From a virus (lineage: Duplodnaviria; Caudoviricetes), in the IMG/VR virus record IMGVR_UViG_3300050195_000111, positions 1-27,231 of that record: a stretch of DNA of 27,231 bases; one strand, given 5' to 3'. This document shows, in pieces, positions 1 through 11,829 of the stretch; the stretch's first letter is position 1, and each line of letters begins with the position of its first letter. A model generated the notes under the pieces. That model saw only the letters and a program-made list of their open reading frames with translations, searched no databases and had not been told where the DNA came from. A program made the position numbers and the translations under genes.

Positions 1-1413
1 AACCGTTGGGCCGCCTCCGGTGAAAAAGTCCCAGATGCCAGAGCCTGCGCCCTTGATGGCATTAAGCAGCGCATCGCCAATCGTTCCAGCAGCAGCTATC
101 CCACCATCTATCAGCGCCTGCAGAGCCGCCACAAACGCCGTGATAAGAGCGCGCATGATAGCGCTGGCCATGTTTTTAAGGCCATCCCAAAGCGCGGATA
201 GAGCGGCAAGCAAGATCGGCGCGAGGTTATCACCCAAGGCCCGCATGGCCGTAAAGAACTGCGCCACGCCATCAATTAGCGCCGCAGGGTCGCCCTTCCA
301 TAGGCCTTCCAGAACTCGCCACAAGCTCTTGCCGACATTGATGATGGCATTGAACGTGCCTAGGACATTATCCTTCCAGCGCGCCCATGGGCCAATCATA
401 GCGCCAATCAGGCTTTCCCCGCCTTGGAGCCACGTAAATACGTCTTCCAGCGCCAGAGCAATCAGCGCCGCCACGGCTGCGAATTGAACACCGGCTGCGA
501 TCATAGGAGCCAATGCTACCCCAGCCATAAGCCCCAGCGCGGCAAGCGTGGCAATCATCAGGCGAACAGCATTATCTGCCCCGCCTACTACATCGATCAC
601 CTTGTTGATGCCGTTTTCGACCGCGACCATGGCGTCAATGATGATTTTTGCCATCTTGGGGATGAACATAGTTTGCCGATTAAGCCTATGCACAAGCCGA
701 TCCCAATGGTTCCCCACAATCTGTGTAGCCTGCCCGAAAGCCAAAGGCATTTTAAGCATATCACGTTCGATCTCTGGAGCCATGGCCTTAAATGCTTCTG
801 CCAGCTTACGCGCCGTCAATGCGCCAGAAGATGATAGCTCGAAAAGCTTGTCAGTCGTAGTGTCCAACTGTGCCGCCAACTTGTCCTTAAAGTCGGTAGA
901 CATTGTCTCCATGAATGCCTTGAACTCGTCGCCGTCTAACTTCCCCTTTTGGAAGCCTTGAGAAAGCTGGATCATAGCGCTAGCGGCCTCTTCAGCAGTA
1001 GCACCGCCGATGACAAGGGCATTTGAAATTGCATCAGTGATTAGCAGCACATCCTCTTGGGTGCGCATGTAGTCCTTTGTAGCGCCTGCCAAGCGAATAT
1101 AGAGCGTGGTGTATTCGGTGATGCCTTGCCGCGCTTTGTCAGCATGTTCCGCCACCCTATCGAAAGCTTCCGCAGCATCCCCGATGGTTTGCGGCAACAT
1201 TCCGATACGCGCCTGCAAAGACTGCATCATGTCCGCAACAGCGACAATCCCACGCGCCGCAGCAAAGCCAGCAATGGCAGCGCCAATAGCAGCAAACGCA
1301 TTGGCAGCGCTTTCAGCCTCGCCTTTGATCCGGTGCAAGCGCCCGTCCACGCGGTCAAGGGCGCTATTGTCAACGCTGAAGCCGAGACGTGTGATTAATT
1401 CCCGAACAATCAT
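1..1413 (-). CDS. Tail tape measure protein (5' part; runs off left edge)
   Basis: Not in ORF track (no stop in window). ATG at 1413, GGAGG upstream. MIVRELITRLGF...GGATAEEAASAMIQLSQGFQKGKLDGDEF is a typical TMP motif. Ala/Gly-rich and follows the tail chaperone. Confidence 0.92.
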   Translation of the reverse strand, partial: MIVRELITRLGFSVDNSALDRVDGRLHRIKGEAESAANAFAAIGAAIAGFAAARGIVAVADMMQSLQARIGMLPQTIGDAAEAFDRVAEHADKARQGITEYTTLYIRLAGATKDYMRTQEDVLLITDAISNALVIGGATAEEAASAMIQLSQGFQKGKLDGDEFKAFMETMSTDFKDKLAAQLDTTTDKLFELSSSGALTARKLAEAFKAMAPEIERDMLKMPLAFGQATQIVGNHWDRLVHRLNRQTMFIPKMAKIIIDAMVAVENGINKVIDVVGGADNAVRLMIATLAALGLMAGVALAPMIAAGVQFAAVAALIALALEDVFTWLQGGESLIGAMIGPWARWKDNVLGTFNAIINVGKSLWRVLEGLWKGDPAALIDGVAQFFTAMRALGDNLAPILLAALSALWDGLKNMASAIMRALITAFVAALQALIDGGIAAAGTIGDALLNAIKGAGSGIWDFFTGGGPTV

Positions 1414-1670
1414 TGACTAGCCTCCTTGGCCTGCGCCGCTTGTATATCCGCCTGCATATCCATCAGGGCGTTAATGGCCAGAATGTCCGACACAGTAGCA
1501 ACGCCGGTCTTAACTTCAGTCAGCGTAAACTTGCCGGCCAGAATAGGACGCCACACCCACAAATCCCGCTCTAGGTCGGGATGCAGCGCCCCATACTTCT
1601 CTAGCCCTTCTTGCCCGCCAGATCGGCCAGATTGACGCCAAAGCGCGCCGCCAGCTTCTGAAAAAAAGGG
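1410..1670 (-). CDS. Tail assembly chaperone C-terminal extension (-1 frame, gpT-like)
   Basis: The -1 frame is open from the slippery CCCTTTTTTT to TGA at 1412-1410 (ATGA overlap with TMP). Encodes ...DLWVWRPILAGKFTLTEVKTGVATVSDILAINALMD... Confidence 0.72.
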   Translation of the reverse strand, partial: PFFSEAGGALWRQSGRSGGQEGLEKYGALHPDLERDLWVWRPILAGKFTLTEVKTGVATVSDILAINALMDMQADIQAAQAKEASQ

Positions 1671-2014
1671 CCGAACTGATAGCGCCCCACCTCGAAAGCC
1701 AGCTCGAAAAAGTCGAACAGGTCTTCATGCGAAAAGACTATATTGACCGATGCCTCATCCTTGATGAACTTCTTGGCCTCGTTCGCGTAAACTCGGCTTT
1801 CAGCCATCATCGGCATGACAATTTCGTCCAGCACTTCAGGCGGGAACACCTCGCCAATCTGTGCCACATCCAGATCGGCCAGCCCCTTGCCACCCAGAGC
1901 GGCAAGCAAGGGGGTCGCCCGCTTGGTGATTTGCAGGAACATCTTGGACGCGGCAAAGGCGTTCATAGGCTGCGCGGTAAACTCACGATTGCCCATGATG
2001 AACGTCTGGGTCAT
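1601..2014 (-). CDS. Tail assembly chaperone (gpG-like)
   Basis: 137 aa between tube and TMP, with a slippery sequence near the 3' end. Confidence 0.8.
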   Translation of the reverse strand: MTQTFIMGNREFTAQPMNAFAASKMFLQITKRATPLLAALGGKGLADLDVAQIGEVFPPEVLDEIVMPMMAESRVYANEAKKFIKDEASVNIVFSHEDLFDFFELAFEVGRYQFGPFFQKLAARFGVNLADLAGKKG

Positions 2015-2461: not shown

Positions 2462-3787
2462 TTACAGCGAATAGGCCAGAGTGCCGGTGATGGTCGTGGC
2501 ATGGATAGCGCCAGCCAAGCGGGCCTTGAACGAAAGCGCCAAAGTGCGGGTTGCCTTCACAGCGCTGGATACATCGGCGGCCTTGGGATAGGTGATCGTA
2601 AAGCCGGGGACGTTTGCGCCGGTAGCGTCCAGTTCATCGGGAGCGATGCCGCCCACGCGATGACCTTCCGCAAGCGTTGCCCGCAAGTTGTTCACGCAAA
2701 GCTGGATGCCTGCATCGGTATAAGGCACCTTGTCGCGACCAATCATCATGGTGACCATGTTGACCTGGATTTGATCCTTCAGCCAATCGCGGAAGCGGAT
2801 AACGTCGATCCACTCGCCCGACATAACCTTGCCCGGTGCGGTCAGCGTCAAGCCGGTCTGATAGAAGTCGAACGTGTTGCCGCCCTTCGCGTGAACCGTA
2901 GCGCGCTGGGTGCTGGTCAGATTGTCCGAGGTAATGCCAGAAAGCGACTTCAAAGCCCATGTTTCCGAACCGCTTTGGATGGTCAAGCAACGCCCAGCCA
3001 AGGCAGCATCAGGGAATTCAGTGCCAGCGTTTGCGCTGTAAATCGCGGCGGTGCGATTGTAACCCAATGCCCGCAACTGCGAAAACAGATCATCGGTCGT
3101 TCCGGAAACCAGGATGCCCGCTTCGCTGCTTGCCGTGTTAAACAGCTTTTCGGTCGTTTCCGCCCAAGCCGCAGCCGAAAGCTGGATTGCCTTGGTGCGC
3201 TCGGCCAAAACCAAGCCATACCAATCAGCGTCTACGTCAAGAATGGCGGTCAGGTCGGCGGAAACCGTGGCACTATCGCCAGTGATTGCGCCCCATGCCA
3301 GACGACTGCCAAGCACAACAGCGCCAACCGTGGCCGAGTTCCACTCAAGCGAGAGGGTGGAGCCCACCACCGTGCCGGTGATGATTTCATTCGTATCAGC
3401 CGCAATTGCAGCGGCAAGGCCGGTCACAATCTCGGTCGCCGTCGCGCTGCTATCAGCCGTATAGCTGTAGGCTTCACCCGCAACCGTGATGGTGTAGGTT
3501 GCAGCATTCACCACGCTGGAAACCGTCACAATGGCGCTATCCACAGTGCGGCGGCCAACCTTGACCTGCGCTGGCTTGGGATCTTGCGCGAAGCAATCGG
3601 AAACAGCCCGCAGCATAACCGGCGGGAGATTGTCACCCTCGGCTTCGGGGTAATTTTCATAGATCTTGACCAAATCAGCCCAAGCCATATGCGGGCCAAC
3701 AATCAAGGGAATGCCGAATTCACCGGCAGAAACGCCCGTCGATTGCAGGGCGATGGAAACATTTGCGATATTATCAAGCGATGCCAT
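2462..3787 (-). CDS. Tail sheath protein (DUF3383-like)
   Basis: 441 aa with GSETWALKSLSGI, GEWIDVIRFRDWL, KVPYTDAGI and ARLAGAIH motifs. Confidence 0.9.
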   Translation of the reverse strand: MASLDNIANVSIALQSTGVSAGEFGIPLIVGPHMAWADLVKIYENYPEAEGDNLPPVMLRAVSDCFAQDPKPAQVKVGRRTVDSAIVTVSSVVNAATYTITVAGEAYSYTADSSATATEIVTGLAAAIAADTNEIITGTVVGSTLSLEWNSATVGAVVLGSRLAWGAITGDSATVSADLTAILDVDADWYGLVLAERTKAIQLSAAAWAETTEKLFNTASSEAGILVSGTTDDLFSQLRALGYNRTAAIYSANAGTEFPDAALAGRCLTIQSGSETWALKSLSGITSDNLTSTQRATVHAKGGNTFDFYQTGLTLTAPGKVMSGEWIDVIRFRDWLKDQIQVNMVTMMIGRDKVPYTDAGIQLCVNNLRATLAEGHRVGGIAPDELDATGANVPGFTITYPKAADVSSAVKATRTLALSFKARLAGAIHATTITGTLAYSL

Positions 3788-6432: not shown

Positions 6433-6507
6433 GCGGATAGGTTGATCCCCGAAAAGATCGTCGCTAGCGATCCTGCCGCTCAACACCTAGCGGGCTATCT
6501 AGCGAGG
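6433..6507 (+). ncRNA. Candidate structured cis-regulatory leader RNA
   Basis: Outer stem GCGG-A-TAG/CTGCCGC, inner stem GATCG/CGATC, and loop TCGCTAG complementary to CTAGCGA (6499-6505) overlapping the RBS. Confidence 0.5.
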
Positions 6508-6513
6508 CCAATC

Positions 6514-7380
6514 ATGAACGATTTTTACGTGTATCTGCATCGGAGAAAGTCCGATGGTGCGATTTTCTATGTCGGCAAGGGGCGCGGCAATCGGGCTTGG
6601 GTAGAGACTGGGCGCAACCAGCATTGGCAGAATGTGGCCAATAAGCATGGATGTGATGTTTCGATCTATCGTGATAAATTAGCCGAGGCTTGCGCATTTT
6701 CTATTGAGCGTATTTTGATTGCATCAATTGGGCGCGACAACCTTTGCAACCTTACCGATGGTGGGGAAGGCGCTAGCGGGTTTGTCAGGCCGCGAGAAGT
6801 TGTTGAGCGTATGGCAGCGATGCATCGCGGCATGAAGCGATCAGAACAATCTCGCCGGAGGATGAGCGAGGCTCAGTTAAATTCCACCAACCGGCCAGAC
6901 AACAGCGGAGACAAAAACCCTTCAAAGCGCCAAGATGTGCGTGATAAAATGTCTGCCGCTAGAAAAGGGAGGTTCACAGGAGACGATAATGTATCAAGAC
7001 GTCCTGATGTTCGCGCTAAACTATCATCGAACAATGCGATGAATGATCCAGCCAATAGAGCTAAAGTCTCTGCGGCCTTGAAGGGGCGTAAAGCCCCATG
7101 GATAATGGGAGACAATCACCCAAACAAAAAACCTGCCGCGCGCGAACATTTATCAAAATTAATGAAAGGAAGGAATGCCCCTTGGGCGACAGGATCTAAT
7201 GCCCATAATTCTCGTTCAGTTGTGTGCGATAATGGCTTAGAGTTTGATACAATTACAGATGCGTCTAAATGGGTTTGTAAAACATACTCAAAATGTGCAA
7301 AGAATATAGTTTCTAAAATCTCAGAGGCATGCAAGGGTAGAAGGAAAACGGCCTACGGCCATAAATGGAAATTTAAATAA
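6514..7380 (+). CDS. Free-standing GIY-YIG homing endonuclease with NUMOD3-like repeats and NUMOD1-like C-terminal HTH
   Basis: FYVYLH...FYVGKG...R...E..LI...NLTDGGEG catalytic pattern; RSEQSRRRMS and three to four similar repeats; ISEACKGRRKTAYGHKWKF end. GAGG RBS before ATG 6514. Confidence 0.88.
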   Translation: MNDFYVYLHRRKSDGAIFYVGKGRGNRAWVETGRNQHWQNVANKHGCDVSIYRDKLAEACAFSIERILIASIGRDNLCNLTDGGEGASGFVRPREVVERMAAMHRGMKRSEQSRRRMSEAQLNSTNRPDNSGDKNPSKRQDVRDKMSAARKGRFTGDDNVSRRPDVRAKLSSNNAMNDPANRAKVSAALKGRKAPWIMGDNHPNKKPAAREHLSKLMKGRNAPWATGSNAHNSRSVVCDNGLEFDTITDASKWVCKTYSKCAKNIVSKISEACKGRRKTAYGHKWKFK

Positions 7381-7430: not shown

Positions 7431-8387
7431 TTAAATACCATCGGTATATGCCAAAGCAAGGGGGTAATATACCACCACGCCGCCCACACGGCTCTCCATC
7501 GGTACAACAAATTCCAGCCCCTGCTGCTGCGGCGTATAAGTCTTCAGCATCATCGGAATTTCGAGCGTCAGGTTGTCTGCGGTGATCTCACCGGCATACA
7601 TGCGGTCAGCACCCGAAGCGCCTGCGCCGTCCAGTTCCAGCACAGCTTCGAACGAAACGCCGGGGTTATTGCGCTGCAAGAATTCCAGCACAGTGGTGTC
7701 GGTGCCGGTGTCATTCTTCAGGCCCGCGATGTAGCTCAACTGCTCCAGCGGCATCCATACGGCATTGGCCTTGTGAATGTCCTTGGACAGGGTGCGCACA
7801 AGGTTGATCAGCGCCTGAACGTCACGCACAATCTGCGCGGGCGTCTTGGTGGTGAATGCCTTGCTGGAACCCGTGCCATCAGCGGTCAGCGTCAAAGCGG
7901 GGATGTTGGCGTTGCTCAACAGACCGGGCAAGCCCGAAACAGTGTCGCCAGCCCATGCCAGACGATTGATCAGCTCTTCCTGCGCGCGGGCAGCCATGGT
8001 TGCCTTGCGGCTTTCCAGATTGGTGCCTGCCATCAGGGCCGAACGGATCTCCTGCGTCGAATAGCCGTAGGCATCGCCAATGCTGCGGATGGGCGAGGTG
8101 AATTCCTTGCCCTTCACATCTGCGCGGGGCAGATCGTTTGCATAGTTGGCAATGATCTTGGCCATGCCCACGCCGTCATACTGGCGATAGGTGATGGTGG
8201 TCGCACCTTCGCCAGCCTCAGTCGAGATGGGCAGGAGACGCATGGCGTTGAGCGCGGGGCGCTTGACGTCATAGGTGCGGCTCTTCACATGCTCCAACTG
8301 GCGGGCAAAGAAAATGCCTTCGTTGGCGTCAAAGCGGCCAGTGTTCTGGATGGCGATCAGGTCGCGTTCATCATAGCGGTCGGTCAT
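7431..8387 (-). CDS. Major capsid protein (DUF2184-like)
   Basis: Start re-called at ATG 8387 (MTDRYD). FFARQLEHV, DLPRADV, GLPGLLSNANI and GGVVVYYPLA motifs; 318 aa. Confidence 0.9.
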   Translation of the reverse strand: MTDRYDERDLIAIQNTGRFDANEGIFFARQLEHVKSRTYDVKRPALNAMRLLPISTEAGEGATTITYRQYDGVGMAKIIANYANDLPRADVKGKEFTSPIRSIGDAYGYSTQEIRSALMAGTNLESRKATMAARAQEELINRLAWAGDTVSGLPGLLSNANIPALTLTADGTGSSKAFTTKTPAQIVRDVQALINLVRTLSKDIHKANAVWMPLEQLSYIAGLKNDTGTDTTVLEFLQRNNPGVSFEAVLELDGAGASGADRMYAGEITADNLTLEIPMMLKTYTPQQQGLEFVVPMESRVGGVVVYYPLALAYTDGI

Positions 8388-8388
8388 C

Positions 8389-8844
8389 TTACTTGATCTC
8401 CACAAGAGCCAGACCAGCCGCCGAAGTGGCGGTTTGGAAGCGGGCCGAGAATTGCGTGAATGCCTCAATGCCGGTGGTGACTGCTTCGTCAGTCAAGGTG
8501 CCGGATGCGACATGCAAATTGGCCACAGCGCCAGCGGCAACAGCATCATTGGTCATGATCCAAAAACGGCCACGCTTCAGGACGTTGACGCTTTCGCCAA
8601 TGGCAAACTGCACCACGCCAGCGCTCGACTGCTCACGCGCATGGTCGTGGATTGCGAATGCGAAAGCGGCAGCGCCAGAGGTAGCTTTTTTGACCTGACG
8701 AGTAGCATTCGTGCCACGCATCAGGGGGTACGCCAGCGGAATGGCTTCTTCGGCAGAAAAGCTGTCGATCAACTGATGGCTAATGCCGTCCAGCATGCCA
8801 ACGAATGCGGCATCCTGATAAAGGGAAACAGTGGTCTGGCTCAT
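8389..8844 (-). CDS. Capsid decoration/cement protein
   Basis: 151 aa between protease and MCP, with the VNVLKRGRFWI motif. Confidence 0.7.
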   Translation of the reverse strand: MSQTTVSLYQDAAFVGMLDGISHQLIDSFSAEEAIPLAYPLMRGTNATRQVKKATSGAAAFAFAIHDHAREQSSAGVVQFAIGESVNVLKRGRFWIMTNDAVAAGAVANLHVASGTLTDEAVTTGIEAFTQFSARFQTATSAAGLALVEIK

Positions 8845-10035: not shown

Positions 10036-11829
10036 TCAATCTTTCGGCCAAACAGCTTCGGAGCGGCATCGACAATTGTGAATGATTATGGTATCACTCG
10101 AATACCAATGATACGCAGTTTCGAGGTTGTAGACATGATCCGCAGAAAATTCACTGATGCCCTTTTGGACGACGCGCGACGAATGCTGGATGATGGCCGA
10201 GGATGTATCACATTGAAGTCCGTTGCTGAGAAGCTTGGAGTTGATAGCAGTAATCTCTCCCAAATTCTCCGATCTCAAGGATATGTCATCCCTAAGCCTA
10301 CTAAGCTGGAGCATTGCCGCAAACAGTTGCCTATTAACAGTGTTATTTCTGATTACCGAAGCGGGATCAGTGAGCTTGCCCTCTCCAAAAAGTATGGATG
10401 CAGCCGACCTACAATCCGGAGATGTCTTGTTGAGAGTGGAGAAGAAGTCAGAAATGGTAGTGAGGCGAACCTCATCAGAATGAGCCGAATGACCAGCGAA
10501 GAGCGTAAGCAGCTTACAAGCGCCGCTAACAAGGCTTCCCGTGGAATACCAGAGCCTCGAAGCCGCAAGATAAAGCGAGCTATCAACACCGAACTGGGAA
10601 ATGCCATGATTGCTATCGGCCAAGGTGAATATGAGTTTTCCAGCTTGTTGGATAGCAAGGGGATCTCCCATATTCGGCAAAAAGCCGCCGATATCTATAG
10701 TCTCGACTTCGCAATTGGAAGCGTCGCCATTGAACTCAAGGCTGGCCGAGGGGGTAACGGACATGTGGCTAGGGACGTATCGCGAAACCGCGTCAAAAAT
10801 CTGGCCAATCTTGGTTGGCAATGCCTTTATGTCTGTTTCGATAGTGTTGACGCCCTCTTGAGTAGCGCAGATGAGATAATCGCCAACATTGACGCGATCA
10901 ATCGCGACCCAACCACGATTAGTCAATATCGGGTGATTAGCTGTCGCTTCGACAATTTTACCAGTTTCCGTAACAATCTTGGTCAATTCGCCGCGATTAG
11001 TTCTGCGCCAAAGCTTCGAACAACCGTGCGCGTTTTCGATATTTGACCATGAGGGGACGCACCTAACAGGCGTCCCCGGATTGCCATCAGGCGGCGGCTT
11101 ATCCCACGAATAGACCTTGCCGTTATACTCAGCATGTTCCGGCCTTACGCGGTTATCCATCACGCTGCGCCACGTGTATTTCTTCACCCCCACGCTTTCG
11201 AGCCGGTGGCGCGTGAGGCTGGCATTTAACTTGAGCGTTTGATCTTGCGCGATAAGCTTAGCCCGATGCTCCGTCATGGGCCATCGGTCGCGGATTTGCT
11301 TTTGCAGATCCCGCACAGAAGCGCCGTTCATGGTGCCGCGCCGGATGATAGCCTCTAGGTCTTTGGCCAGCTTTTCGGGAACGTCCTTAATCAGCGCGGT
11401 GTTTTCAGCCACCCAGCCCTCCGCAATGGGCTGCAAATAGGCTTCGTCTTGAAAGACGTTCACGCCTAGCAGGCTGGGCCGTTTACCTTGCGGGTTTTTG
11501 GGCGGCAGATCGACGCCAGTGTTGGCCTTAACCACCATGCGGAATTGCGCATGATTGAAATTGGACACCACCTCAAAGCGGCTTGGCAGGGTCTGGATAG
11601 TCGCCGCGCCCATAACACCAGCCACGCGGAGGAATTCAGCAATAAGCCGCGCCAGATCATCGCCCCAGCTATCGAGCCTAGCCTCCCTGCGATAAGCCCC
11701 GACAATATCGCCCACCTTAGGCAGGATGATAGACCCCGAGGCGCGGTTGACCTCACGGGCATAGCGCAACATGGCGCGGGTGTATTCGCGCTCTGCACTG
11801 TCTGGATTGGCGAATAGGGCCTTGGGCAT
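10036..11829 (-). CDS. Head morphogenesis protein (SPP1 gp7/Mu gpF-like), intein-containing precursor
   Basis: RAKLIAQDQ..KLN...YTWRSVMDNRVRPEH motifs. Removing residues 257-585 restores the conserved PGTPVR-CRC end (268 aa). Confidence 0.92.
   Translation of the reverse strand: MPKALFANPDSAEREYTRAMLRYAREVNRASGSIILPKVGDIVGAYRREARLDSWGDDLARLIAEFLRVAGVMGAATIQTLPSRFEVVSNFNHAQFRMVVKANTGVDLPPKNPQGKRPSLLGVNVFQDEAYLQPIAEGWVAENTALIKDVPEKLAKDLEAIIRRGTMNGASVRDLQKQIRDRWPMTEHRAKLIAQDQTLKLNASLTRHRLESVGVKKYTWRSVMDNRVRPEHAEYNGKVYSWDKPPPDGNPGTPVRCVPSWSNIENAHGCSKLWRRTNRGELTKIVTETGKIVEATANHPILTNRGWVAIDRVNVGDYLICATQEGVNTIETDIKALPTKIGQIFDAVSRYVPSHMSVTPSASLEFNGDASNCEVETIDIGGFLPNMGDPLAIQQAGKLIFTLADSNHGISQFGVDSSLYLAASRLWYSTGSLVSGACKLLTLFAGHSAHSDEVRLTTISDFFSTLNKTSPDCRSAASILFGEGKLTDPASVIRNNTVNRQLFAAMLQLSRLRDDISLRSENLGEITAINSKLLSNGLQCDTSSAIIQHSSRVVQKGISEFSADHVYNLETAYHWYSSDTIIIHNCRCRSEAVWPKD
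10075..11061 (-). mobile_element. Intein (329 aa)
   Basis: C1 (CVPSWSNI), block B (ATANHPILTNRGWV...VGDYL), block F (VYNLET), terminal HN followed by extein Cys. Confidence 0.92.
10135..11046 (+). CDS. Antisense intein-internal HTH + DUF559/Vsr-like endonuclease
   Basis: GAGGT 7 nt before ATG 10135. HTH-like TLKSVAEKLGVDSSNLSQIL and SELALSKKYGCSRPTIRRCL, then E.EF..LL...GI...RQ....YSLDFAI..VAIEL...L...GW..L.V. Confidence 0.78.
   Translation: MIRRKFTDALLDDARRMLDDGRGCITLKSVAEKLGVDSSNLSQILRSQGYVIPKPTKLEHCRKQLPINSVISDYRSGISELALSKKYGCSRPTIRRCLVESGEEVRNGSEANLIRMSRMTSEERKQLTSAANKASRGIPEPRSRKIKRAINTELGNAMIAIGQGEYEFSSLLDSKGISHIRQKAADIYSLDFAIGSVAIELKAGRGGNGHVARDVSRNRVKNLANLGWQCLYVCFDSVDALLSSADEIIANIDAINRDPTTISQYRVISCRFDNFTSFRNNLGQFAAISSAPKLRTTVRVFDI

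Follow-up and report, generated by a model that had tools for sequence, protein, structure and literature searches.

The stretch of DNA considered here is the tailed-phage record IMGVR_UViG_3300050195_000111 (Duplodnaviria; Caudoviricetes), analysed over its 27,231 nucleotides (hereafter the window), and its main subject is an intein in a MuF-type head morphogenesis gene. The intein is coded on the minus strand, and the plus strand of the same DNA carries a separate gene of 303 codons for a predicted Vsr-like nuclease. Judged from sequence comparison, this antisense nuclease is probably the homing endonuclease of the MuF intein. An initial annotation of the window had proposed such a separate antisense mobility nuclease and knew of no described example. 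The selected gene, the Vsr-like fold and the Hint-only intein frame have all stood up, but the implied novelty has not, because this layout is already in print in a 2025 preprint (bioRxiv 10.1101/2025.01.02.630785, main text). In the mechanism we propose, the intein would splice itself out to give a MuF protein of 268 amino acids, and the opposite strand would supply the nuclease, translated from a ribosome-binding site and an ATG that are spelled by the antisense of intein block F. The nuclease would cut the intact MuF site at or near the position just before a CRC motif. Intein-free MuF alleles of co-infecting phages would be cut in this way, and repair would copy the insert into them.

The host protein is recognised by Phage_Mu_F at residues 158-257 of the 597-residue precursor (Pfam, E 2.5e-18), and Intein_splicing matches residues 265-585 (E 7e-8, 32.9 bits, slightly below the cut-off of 35.8). 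The initial annotation had described a 329-residue insertion with C1, TxxH, block F and HN/C just before CRC, and the motifs are where it placed them: C1 is precursor residue 257, TANH takes up intein codons 40-43 and HVYNL codons 309-313, and a terminal HN is followed by C+1 of CRC. Among the 120 shorter homologs listed, 118 have an uninterrupted C[RK]C, and the insertion is therefore missing from these. Subtracting 329 from 597 residues gives 268, and intein-less relatives mostly have 263-277; going by these motifs and lengths, we infer that the precursor would splice to a MuF of this size. A bounded in-frame insertion, TxxH, block F, a penultimate His and a predicted Hint fold together make this a class 1 intein, although the in-frame endonuclease that canonical mobile inteins have between blocks B and F is absent. 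The description of the centre as Ser/Leu-rich and free of endonuclease motifs also holds. Its central 225 residues are 24% Ser+Leu, compared with 13% in the extein, and searches of Pfam, NCBIfam and PDB sequences with the in-frame centre gave no match. In an AlphaFold model built with 55 sequences, the pLDDT confidence score is about 90 at residues 1-60 and 291-329 and 36-51 at residues 141-230, and Foldseek places inteins on top for this model (best E 2.4e-4). The intein frame is thus predicted to hold a Hint domain only, with a disordered loop between its two ends. All 55 aligned inteins share C1, T40, H43 and N329, with conservation of the terminal His at 90% or more. The GC content is 48.5% in the intein and 58.3% in the N-extein.

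The open reading frame (ORF) on the plus strand has no internal stop, is codon-aligned (phase 0) with the intein frame and lies wholly within the intein, as had been noticed at the outset. The accompanying caution that such frames are often mere shadows was fair: of the six other window genes tested, two have phase-0 antisense frames open for 321 and 442 codons, and the length of the ORF is therefore not evidence. These two runs belong to the major capsid gene (window 7431-8468, 321 codons) and the DUF3383 gene (2462-3787, 442 codons), where the antisense frames are fully or nearly open, and they are probably codon-usage shadows. What makes the ORF a real gene, in our view, is its homology, its fold and the pattern of variation over codon positions.

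Where two genes overlap in phase 0, the wobble position of either one faces codon position 1 of its partner. Comparing selection on the two strands of homologous inteins, as the initial annotation had suggested, can thus tell which of them is constrained, and for this, variable sites were counted together for 20 of the 24 intein loci described below, arranged in six groups of related loci. In the N-extein, the fraction of variable sites is 0.57 at the minus-strand wobble position and 0.31 at the plus-strand one, whereas in the intein centre the divergence switches to the plus strand, with 0.48 at the plus-strand and 0.32 at the minus-strand wobble position (p 1e-9; six of six groups in the same direction). 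Where the nuclease frame overlaps the N-terminal Hint region (Hint-N), the fractions are 0.33 for minus and 0.30 for plus. Both values are low and equal, the pattern that constraint on the two proteins at once would give. The plus strand is the selected one in the intein centre, while over Hint blocks A-B both are under selection; about 60 codons of the splicing domain are doubly constrained, and minus-strand constraint is retained in blocks A and F-G. Frequent stops in the plus frame among homologues had been named as grounds for dropping the idea, and none were found: all 24 loci are open. The two strands also meet in F[HNY][GS]D, a motif conserved in these inteins (71 of 74 homologous precursors). 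Its reverse complement encodes the nuclease strand VAIE(200), with E200, which makes the motif a shadow of the active site. A further statistic, the absence of antisense stops (0) from 869 Hint-N codons where 21.6 would be expected, was set aside as partly circular, since the region begins at the stop, and the fixed position of the stop was relied on instead.

The plus-strand protein belongs to a large family, with 1,933 relatives among 50%-identity representatives at E<=1e-3, 1,002 at 1e-10 and 81 at 1e-30. An alignment of 124 sequences was made from the query and near-full-length matches (271-325 residues), excluding short, long and repeat-type rows. In it E165, D191 and E200 are invariant (124/124), Q182 is present in 120 of 124, and Met1 is at least 90% conserved. 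Family matches among the 124 members are to HTH_23 (60), MTES_1575 (32) and DUF559 (16), in line with the two helix-turn-helix (HTH) segments and the DUF559/Vsr pattern read from the letters at the outset. Searched against PDB, the family profile finds 3HRL (E 2e-5) and the homing endonuclease I-Bth0305I (3R3P, E 6e-4), while the single protein gives nothing meaningful with phmmer. The AlphaFold model (mean pLDDT 95.2) starts with two three-helix units, which a helical linker joins to an alpha/beta nuclease domain, and ends in a long C-terminal hairpin. In a VIA structure search its top row is Vsr 1CW0 (Z 8.9, root-mean-square deviation (rmsd) 3.1, 113 aligned), and the next rows are 3HRL (Z 8.8, rmsd 2.3, 88 aligned) and 3R3P (Z 8.4, rmsd 3.9, 95 aligned). 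Profile and model therefore agree, for both translations, with the expected division: Hint only on the minus strand and a predicted HTH-HTH-linker-nuclease-hairpin fold on the plus strand. That the plus ORF is a selected gene for two HTH units and a Vsr-like nuclease fold is supported on all these counts. One reservation about the catalytic motif can be withdrawn. The window sequence IELKAG had been seen as a departure from the usual IExDG, but E-x-K, with Lys two residues after the Glu (E+2), is the commonest state in the family (46/124) and is the classical (D/E)xK nuclease pattern.

The start and stop of the nuclease gene are written into the Hint domain. The ORF begins opposite the block-F His codon in 22 of the 24 loci (this codon being CAT in 21 and CAC in one) and opposite a His one codon before it in the other two; its stop lies against intein codons 2-16. 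Among 15 representatives that remain after removal of near-duplicates, the block-F His is CAT in all 15, compared with 24 of 85 extein His codons, one of 15 in block B and two of eight in block G. The GAGGT before the ATG that had been pointed out in the window is present, as a Shine-Dalgarno-like (SD) element. Pairing of block F with the anti-SD is better than under synonymous recoding overall (Fisher p ~1e-5), a value that overstates independence as the 15 representatives share ancestry. TATAAT-like boxes in blocks F-G beat synonymous recoding in four of the 15 (three Guernseyvirinae and Vivi2), the window not among them. The most likely source of a transcript is a weak promoter inside blocks F-G or read-through from the left.

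The same layout recurs in many phages. With tblastn, 104 phage records and one plasmid record have nuclease matches; 24 of the phage records and the plasmid record were opened, and one IMG/VR locus was added. This gave 24 intein loci: the window, 21 phage records, one prophage filed as a plasmid and one IMG/VR contig. In all 24 the nuclease ORF is phase-0 antisense within a MuF-type intein and open throughout, and the intein frame is open too. In the remaining three of the opened phage records the nuclease is free-standing. In 23 of the 24 loci the insertion lies before C-[RK]-[CS]. The exception is Mycobacterium phage Sejanus (L015), whose antisense-nuclease intein sits elsewhere in the MuF domain, after KVWV and before CTIDG, which suggests a target switch. 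Related inteins are found at the same MuF site within very divergent exteins. The protein matches MuF genes of the Gordonia phages Vivi2, Fosterous, Affeca and Angelicage, with homologs of 31-32% identity (E 1e-21 to 1e-25) in Gordonia phage MuF inteins, and the family reaches proteobacterial phages too, namely those of Salmonella, Klebsiella, Vibrio, Aggregatibacter, Edwardsiella and Helicobacter. Salmonella phages account for 62 matching records. The Guernseyvirinae loci L004, L011, L012, L018 and L031-L034, together with L015, L016 and L036, have shorter inteins of 272-275 residues, and their antisense nuclease, 242-250 residues long, does without the first HTH unit. A DNA-profile scan with four sequences added one new viral locus, one in genomes and none in metagenomes.

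Whether the element moves can be approached through empty alleles. L022 (2501-4234) holds an intein-free allele with a different, longer 3' end. L022 and a second empty allele, L023, encode a C-terminal MuF extension of about 310 residues that has no Pfam match (PHROG 33618, function not assigned). The 3' end of MuF looks like an exchangeable cassette, of which the window has the short form with the intein. The junction in L023 reads PVRDRCR instead of PVRCRCR, a difference that may mark a resistant allele or come from a sequencing error. In the extein tree the window pairs with the empty L022, and the intein-bearing P0158 pairs with the empty L023. Sequencing run X17 holds intein contigs as well as a contig whose loose end matches the L022-type allele, and targets therefore coexist with the intein; in runs X17-X20 no contig spanning the intein was found, and cover was patchy in the low-share runs.

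A different kind of evidence comes from Acinetobacter phages, where the nuclease is free-standing in three of 80 matching records, convergent on an intein-less MuF. Compared with three nuclease-less relatives, these three records have the 3' third of MuF recoded, the codons of the insertion site included. The recoded end and the nuclease have 0 mismatches among all three records, from about nucleotide 480 to 1899 of the compared stretch. The 5' parts of MuF in the cassette carriers have 45 mismatches, and the first 480 nucleotides of P1068 are identical to two nuclease-less phages. This sharing of one cassette between two MuF backgrounds gives the best indirect evidence for homing. Intronless homing, with co-conversion of the flanks, is a known concept, and by analogy the Acinetobacter cassette resembles it.

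The free-standing nuclease groups with seven intein-embedded ones in a supported group of eight of an unrooted tree, where it sits on a long branch and has no resolved position. Opposite its start is HVHSL, which is block-F-like, and its antisense frame matches the intein profile over positions 94-312 only. Against the embedded tails, its C-terminal 50 residues reach a score of only 3.6 bits (second among 1,001 when shuffles are counted), so homology of the tails is at most suggestive. Together this hints that the Acinetobacter nuclease may be an escapee from an intein. We tentatively consider a fuller history, somewhat short of an even chance: the Hint domain would have built the ends of the gene, block F in reverse giving the SD and start and the hairpin being overprinted opposite blocks A-B, and the nuclease would then have shed the intein to home free-standing beside a recoded, immune MuF end, as in the three Acinetobacter phages. 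This is the reverse direction to the published route from free-standing gene to intein.

Several observations weigh against a homing nuclease expressed from the plus strand. The window and P0158 are 83% identical in extein and in intein alike; given these equal values and the different long 3' ends of L022 and L023, vertical descent with exchange of the 3' end fits as well as homing. The Acinetobacter cassette could also be ordinary modular recombination. On expression, the SD is individually significant in only five of the 15 representatives (window p 0.14), a promoter scan found no sigma-70-like promoter upstream of 10135 within the window, and the best -10 box there does not outdo synonymous recoding (p 0.48). 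Foldseek with the nuclease model gave no match at E<=0.001 (the best relevant one being 3R3P, E 6.5e-3), the VIA Z of 8-9 is modest, and the His/Asp pair of EDxHD nucleases is not conserved in the family, with Asp at E+2 in 0 of 124. A His at E+5 to E+10 occurs in 30 of 124 members, and H210 and D214 of the window lie in a weakly conserved segment.

The alternative that gains most from these points is that the antisense gene, though genuine and expressed, has stopped driving homing or never did so, and is kept for another benefit, as a competitor-excluding nuclease or a DNA-binding regulator, with the intein inherited vertically. Besides the equal identities, it can draw on the residue at E+2, which varies freely, on the lack of a conserved general-base His, and on the statement in the 2025 preprint's main text that several VSR-like inteins look vertically inherited (bioRxiv 10.1101/2025.01.02.630785). 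We hold it unlikely: the acidic catalytic residues are invariant throughout the alignment, the gene is tied to the MuF site in every context inspected, be it within the intein or beside a recoded MuF 3' end, and related inteins share one site across very divergent exteins. Clearly less probable again is that the insert splices poorly, in a MuF that is dispensable or tolerant, and survives chiefly as a nuclease cassette whose Hint shell is decaying. The Hint domain is indeed compact and atypical, with block B at codon 40 and with Pfam and TIGR01445 scores beneath the curated cut-offs, and the nuclease is also found free-standing; but the splicing residues are invariant in the 55 inteins with the terminal His nearly so, the two ends, modelled at pLDDT ~90, resemble intein structures, no locus has a broken intein frame, and the minus strand is constrained in blocks A and F-G. 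That the plus ORF is a phase-0 antisense shadow with no protein product is barely credible, for the long shadows elsewhere in the window, a chance of ~0.012 for 303 open codons at the pooled rate and single-sequence Pfam matches under cut-off are outweighed by the wobble switch inside the intein, by the confident plus-strand nuclease model opposite a disordered minus-frame centre, by the invariant E165/D191/E200, and by free-standing homologs that retain the nuclease frame while their opposite phase-0 frame carries 16 stops.

Features of this layout have counterparts in several described systems. In the main text of their preprint, Gosselin, Arsenault and Gogarten describe non-canonical endonucleases in 63 actinophage inteins, anti-sense LAGLIDADG and anti-sense VSR-like ones among them, and report minor-capsid inteins (IPR006528) exclusively with non-canonical endonucleases (bioRxiv 10.1101/2025.01.02.630785). 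As in the window, their inteins are contiguous, with an anti-sense nuclease and an in-frame centre that has no recognisable fold. The VSR-like protein of these inteins has a long helical region followed by a core that matches 1CW0 (Z 10.6, residues 144-267) and, by HHpred, 3R3P; for the same core and arrangement in the window the VIA search gave Z 8.9 and 8.4. Their survey covers actinophages only, whereas the family described here reaches proteobacterial phages. The main text does not contain "start codon" or "block F" and does not name Vivi2 or Fosterous; nor did we find in it the Hint-encoded start signal, the ~60 doubly constrained codons, the proteobacterial range or the free-standing Acinetobacter cassette. 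It credits anti-sense LAGLIDADG inteins (dnaX, SpoVR-like) to Gorbalenya 1998 and Gogarten 2002; these likewise have an opposite-strand endonuclease, but nuclease family and host genes differ. No experimental study of the anti-sense class was found in a literature search with thin coverage of subscription journals, which for this layout turned up the 2025 preprint only.

The closest nuclease relatives described are the EDxHD homing endonucleases, with I-Bth0305I as prototype (Taylor et al., PMC3239194). These share with the window family an N-terminal DNA-binding region before a C-terminal Vsr-like nuclease with a conserved Glu and a metal-binding Asp. The window family differs in having HTH units instead of NUMOD repeats, an extra C-terminal hairpin, and no conserved His general base with its following Asp, and its gene is antisense in an intein, theirs in a group I intron. 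In a related example, Dassa et al. 2009 (PMC2677866) describe fractured genes, where split inteins have an intervening free-standing Vsr-like or GIY-YIG endonuclease. There, too, a separate Vsr-like gene is tied to an intein and the nuclease 3' end overlaps intein coding, by 6-69 bp in the cases given, but the window intein is in one piece, and all 909 nt of its nuclease ORF code on both strands. An out-of-frame HNH insert has also been described (PMC11855218).

The features are collected in Table 1. The record is 27.2 kb long, estimated to be ~54% complete, and shows a minus-strand head/tail module of a tailed phage with terminase, portal, MuF, DUF2213, cement protein, major capsid and DUF3383 genes. 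All 24 public runs listed with matches to the stretch are leaf-litter metagenomes, and 14 of the 24 have at least half of its words; six may be the runs from which it came. The window has a second homing-endonuclease-like ORF at 6442-7380 (plus strand), free-standing, convergent and immediately downstream of the major capsid gene, with a match to PHROG 314 (E 1e-19) and weak matches to NUMOD3 and GIY-YIG.

Table 1. Positions of the MuF gene, its intein and the antisense nuclease in the window, and of the free-standing nuclease in Acinetobacter phage records.
Feature	Position	Strand	Basis or remark
MuF / SPP1 gp7-like head morphogenesis gene	10036..11829	-	597-residue precursor, predicted 268 residues after splicing; flanked by portal gene and DUF2213 gene
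N-extein, residues 1-256	11062..11829	-	96% identity to intein-less allele in L022
Class 1 intein, 329 residues (C1 ... HN/C+1)	10075..11061	-	C257 to N585 of precursor
N-terminal Hint region, intein codons 1-65	10867..11061	-	Block B TANH at 10933-10944; pLDDT 88-97 for residues 1-60; codons 7-65 double as nuclease C-terminus (plus)
In-frame intein centre without recognisable endonuclease, antisense shadow of nuclease gene	10198..10866	-	Family and PDB searches, model, strand divergence
C-terminal Hint region	10075..10197	-	Block F HVYNL (10123-10137), block G ending HN; motif alignment, model
C-extein, 12 residues from C+1 of CRC, and stop codon	10036..10074	-	Translation
Antisense gene, 303 residues, predicted Vsr-like homing endonuclease	10135..11046	+	ATG is reverse complement of block-F His codon; stop opposite intein codon 6
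Shine-Dalgarno-like GAGGT, 7 nt 5' of ATG	10123..10127	+	Reverse complement of block-F Asn-Leu codons
Two three-helix HTH units in tandem (residues ~8-47 and ~67-100), putatively DNA-binding	10156..10434	+	Family matches, model
Helical linker, residues ~108-154	10456..10596	+	Conserved R124, A131, R136-G137; alignment, model
Vsr/DUF559-like nuclease domain, residues 159-261	10609..10917	+	Profile, fold, alignment
C-terminal beta-hairpin, residues 264-302	10924..11040	+	Opposite Hint blocks A-B; model
Free-standing nuclease, Acinetobacter phages	P1068 (L029) 1435-2328; IME285 (L008) 455-1348; BUCT629 (L041) 1071-1964		

It is worth noting that the antisense gene is annotated in none of the 21 intein-bearing phage records opened, and has thus been missed by annotation in phage records. 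The locus is a natural case of about 900 bases that code on both strands, with about 60 codons where two folded domains constrain each other. The layout is predicted to separate expression of the endonuclease from that of the late host protein. Culturable carriers whose hosts are harmless exist in the Gordonia phages Vivi2 and Fosterous and the E. coli phage Snoke, so that expression and homing are directly testable.

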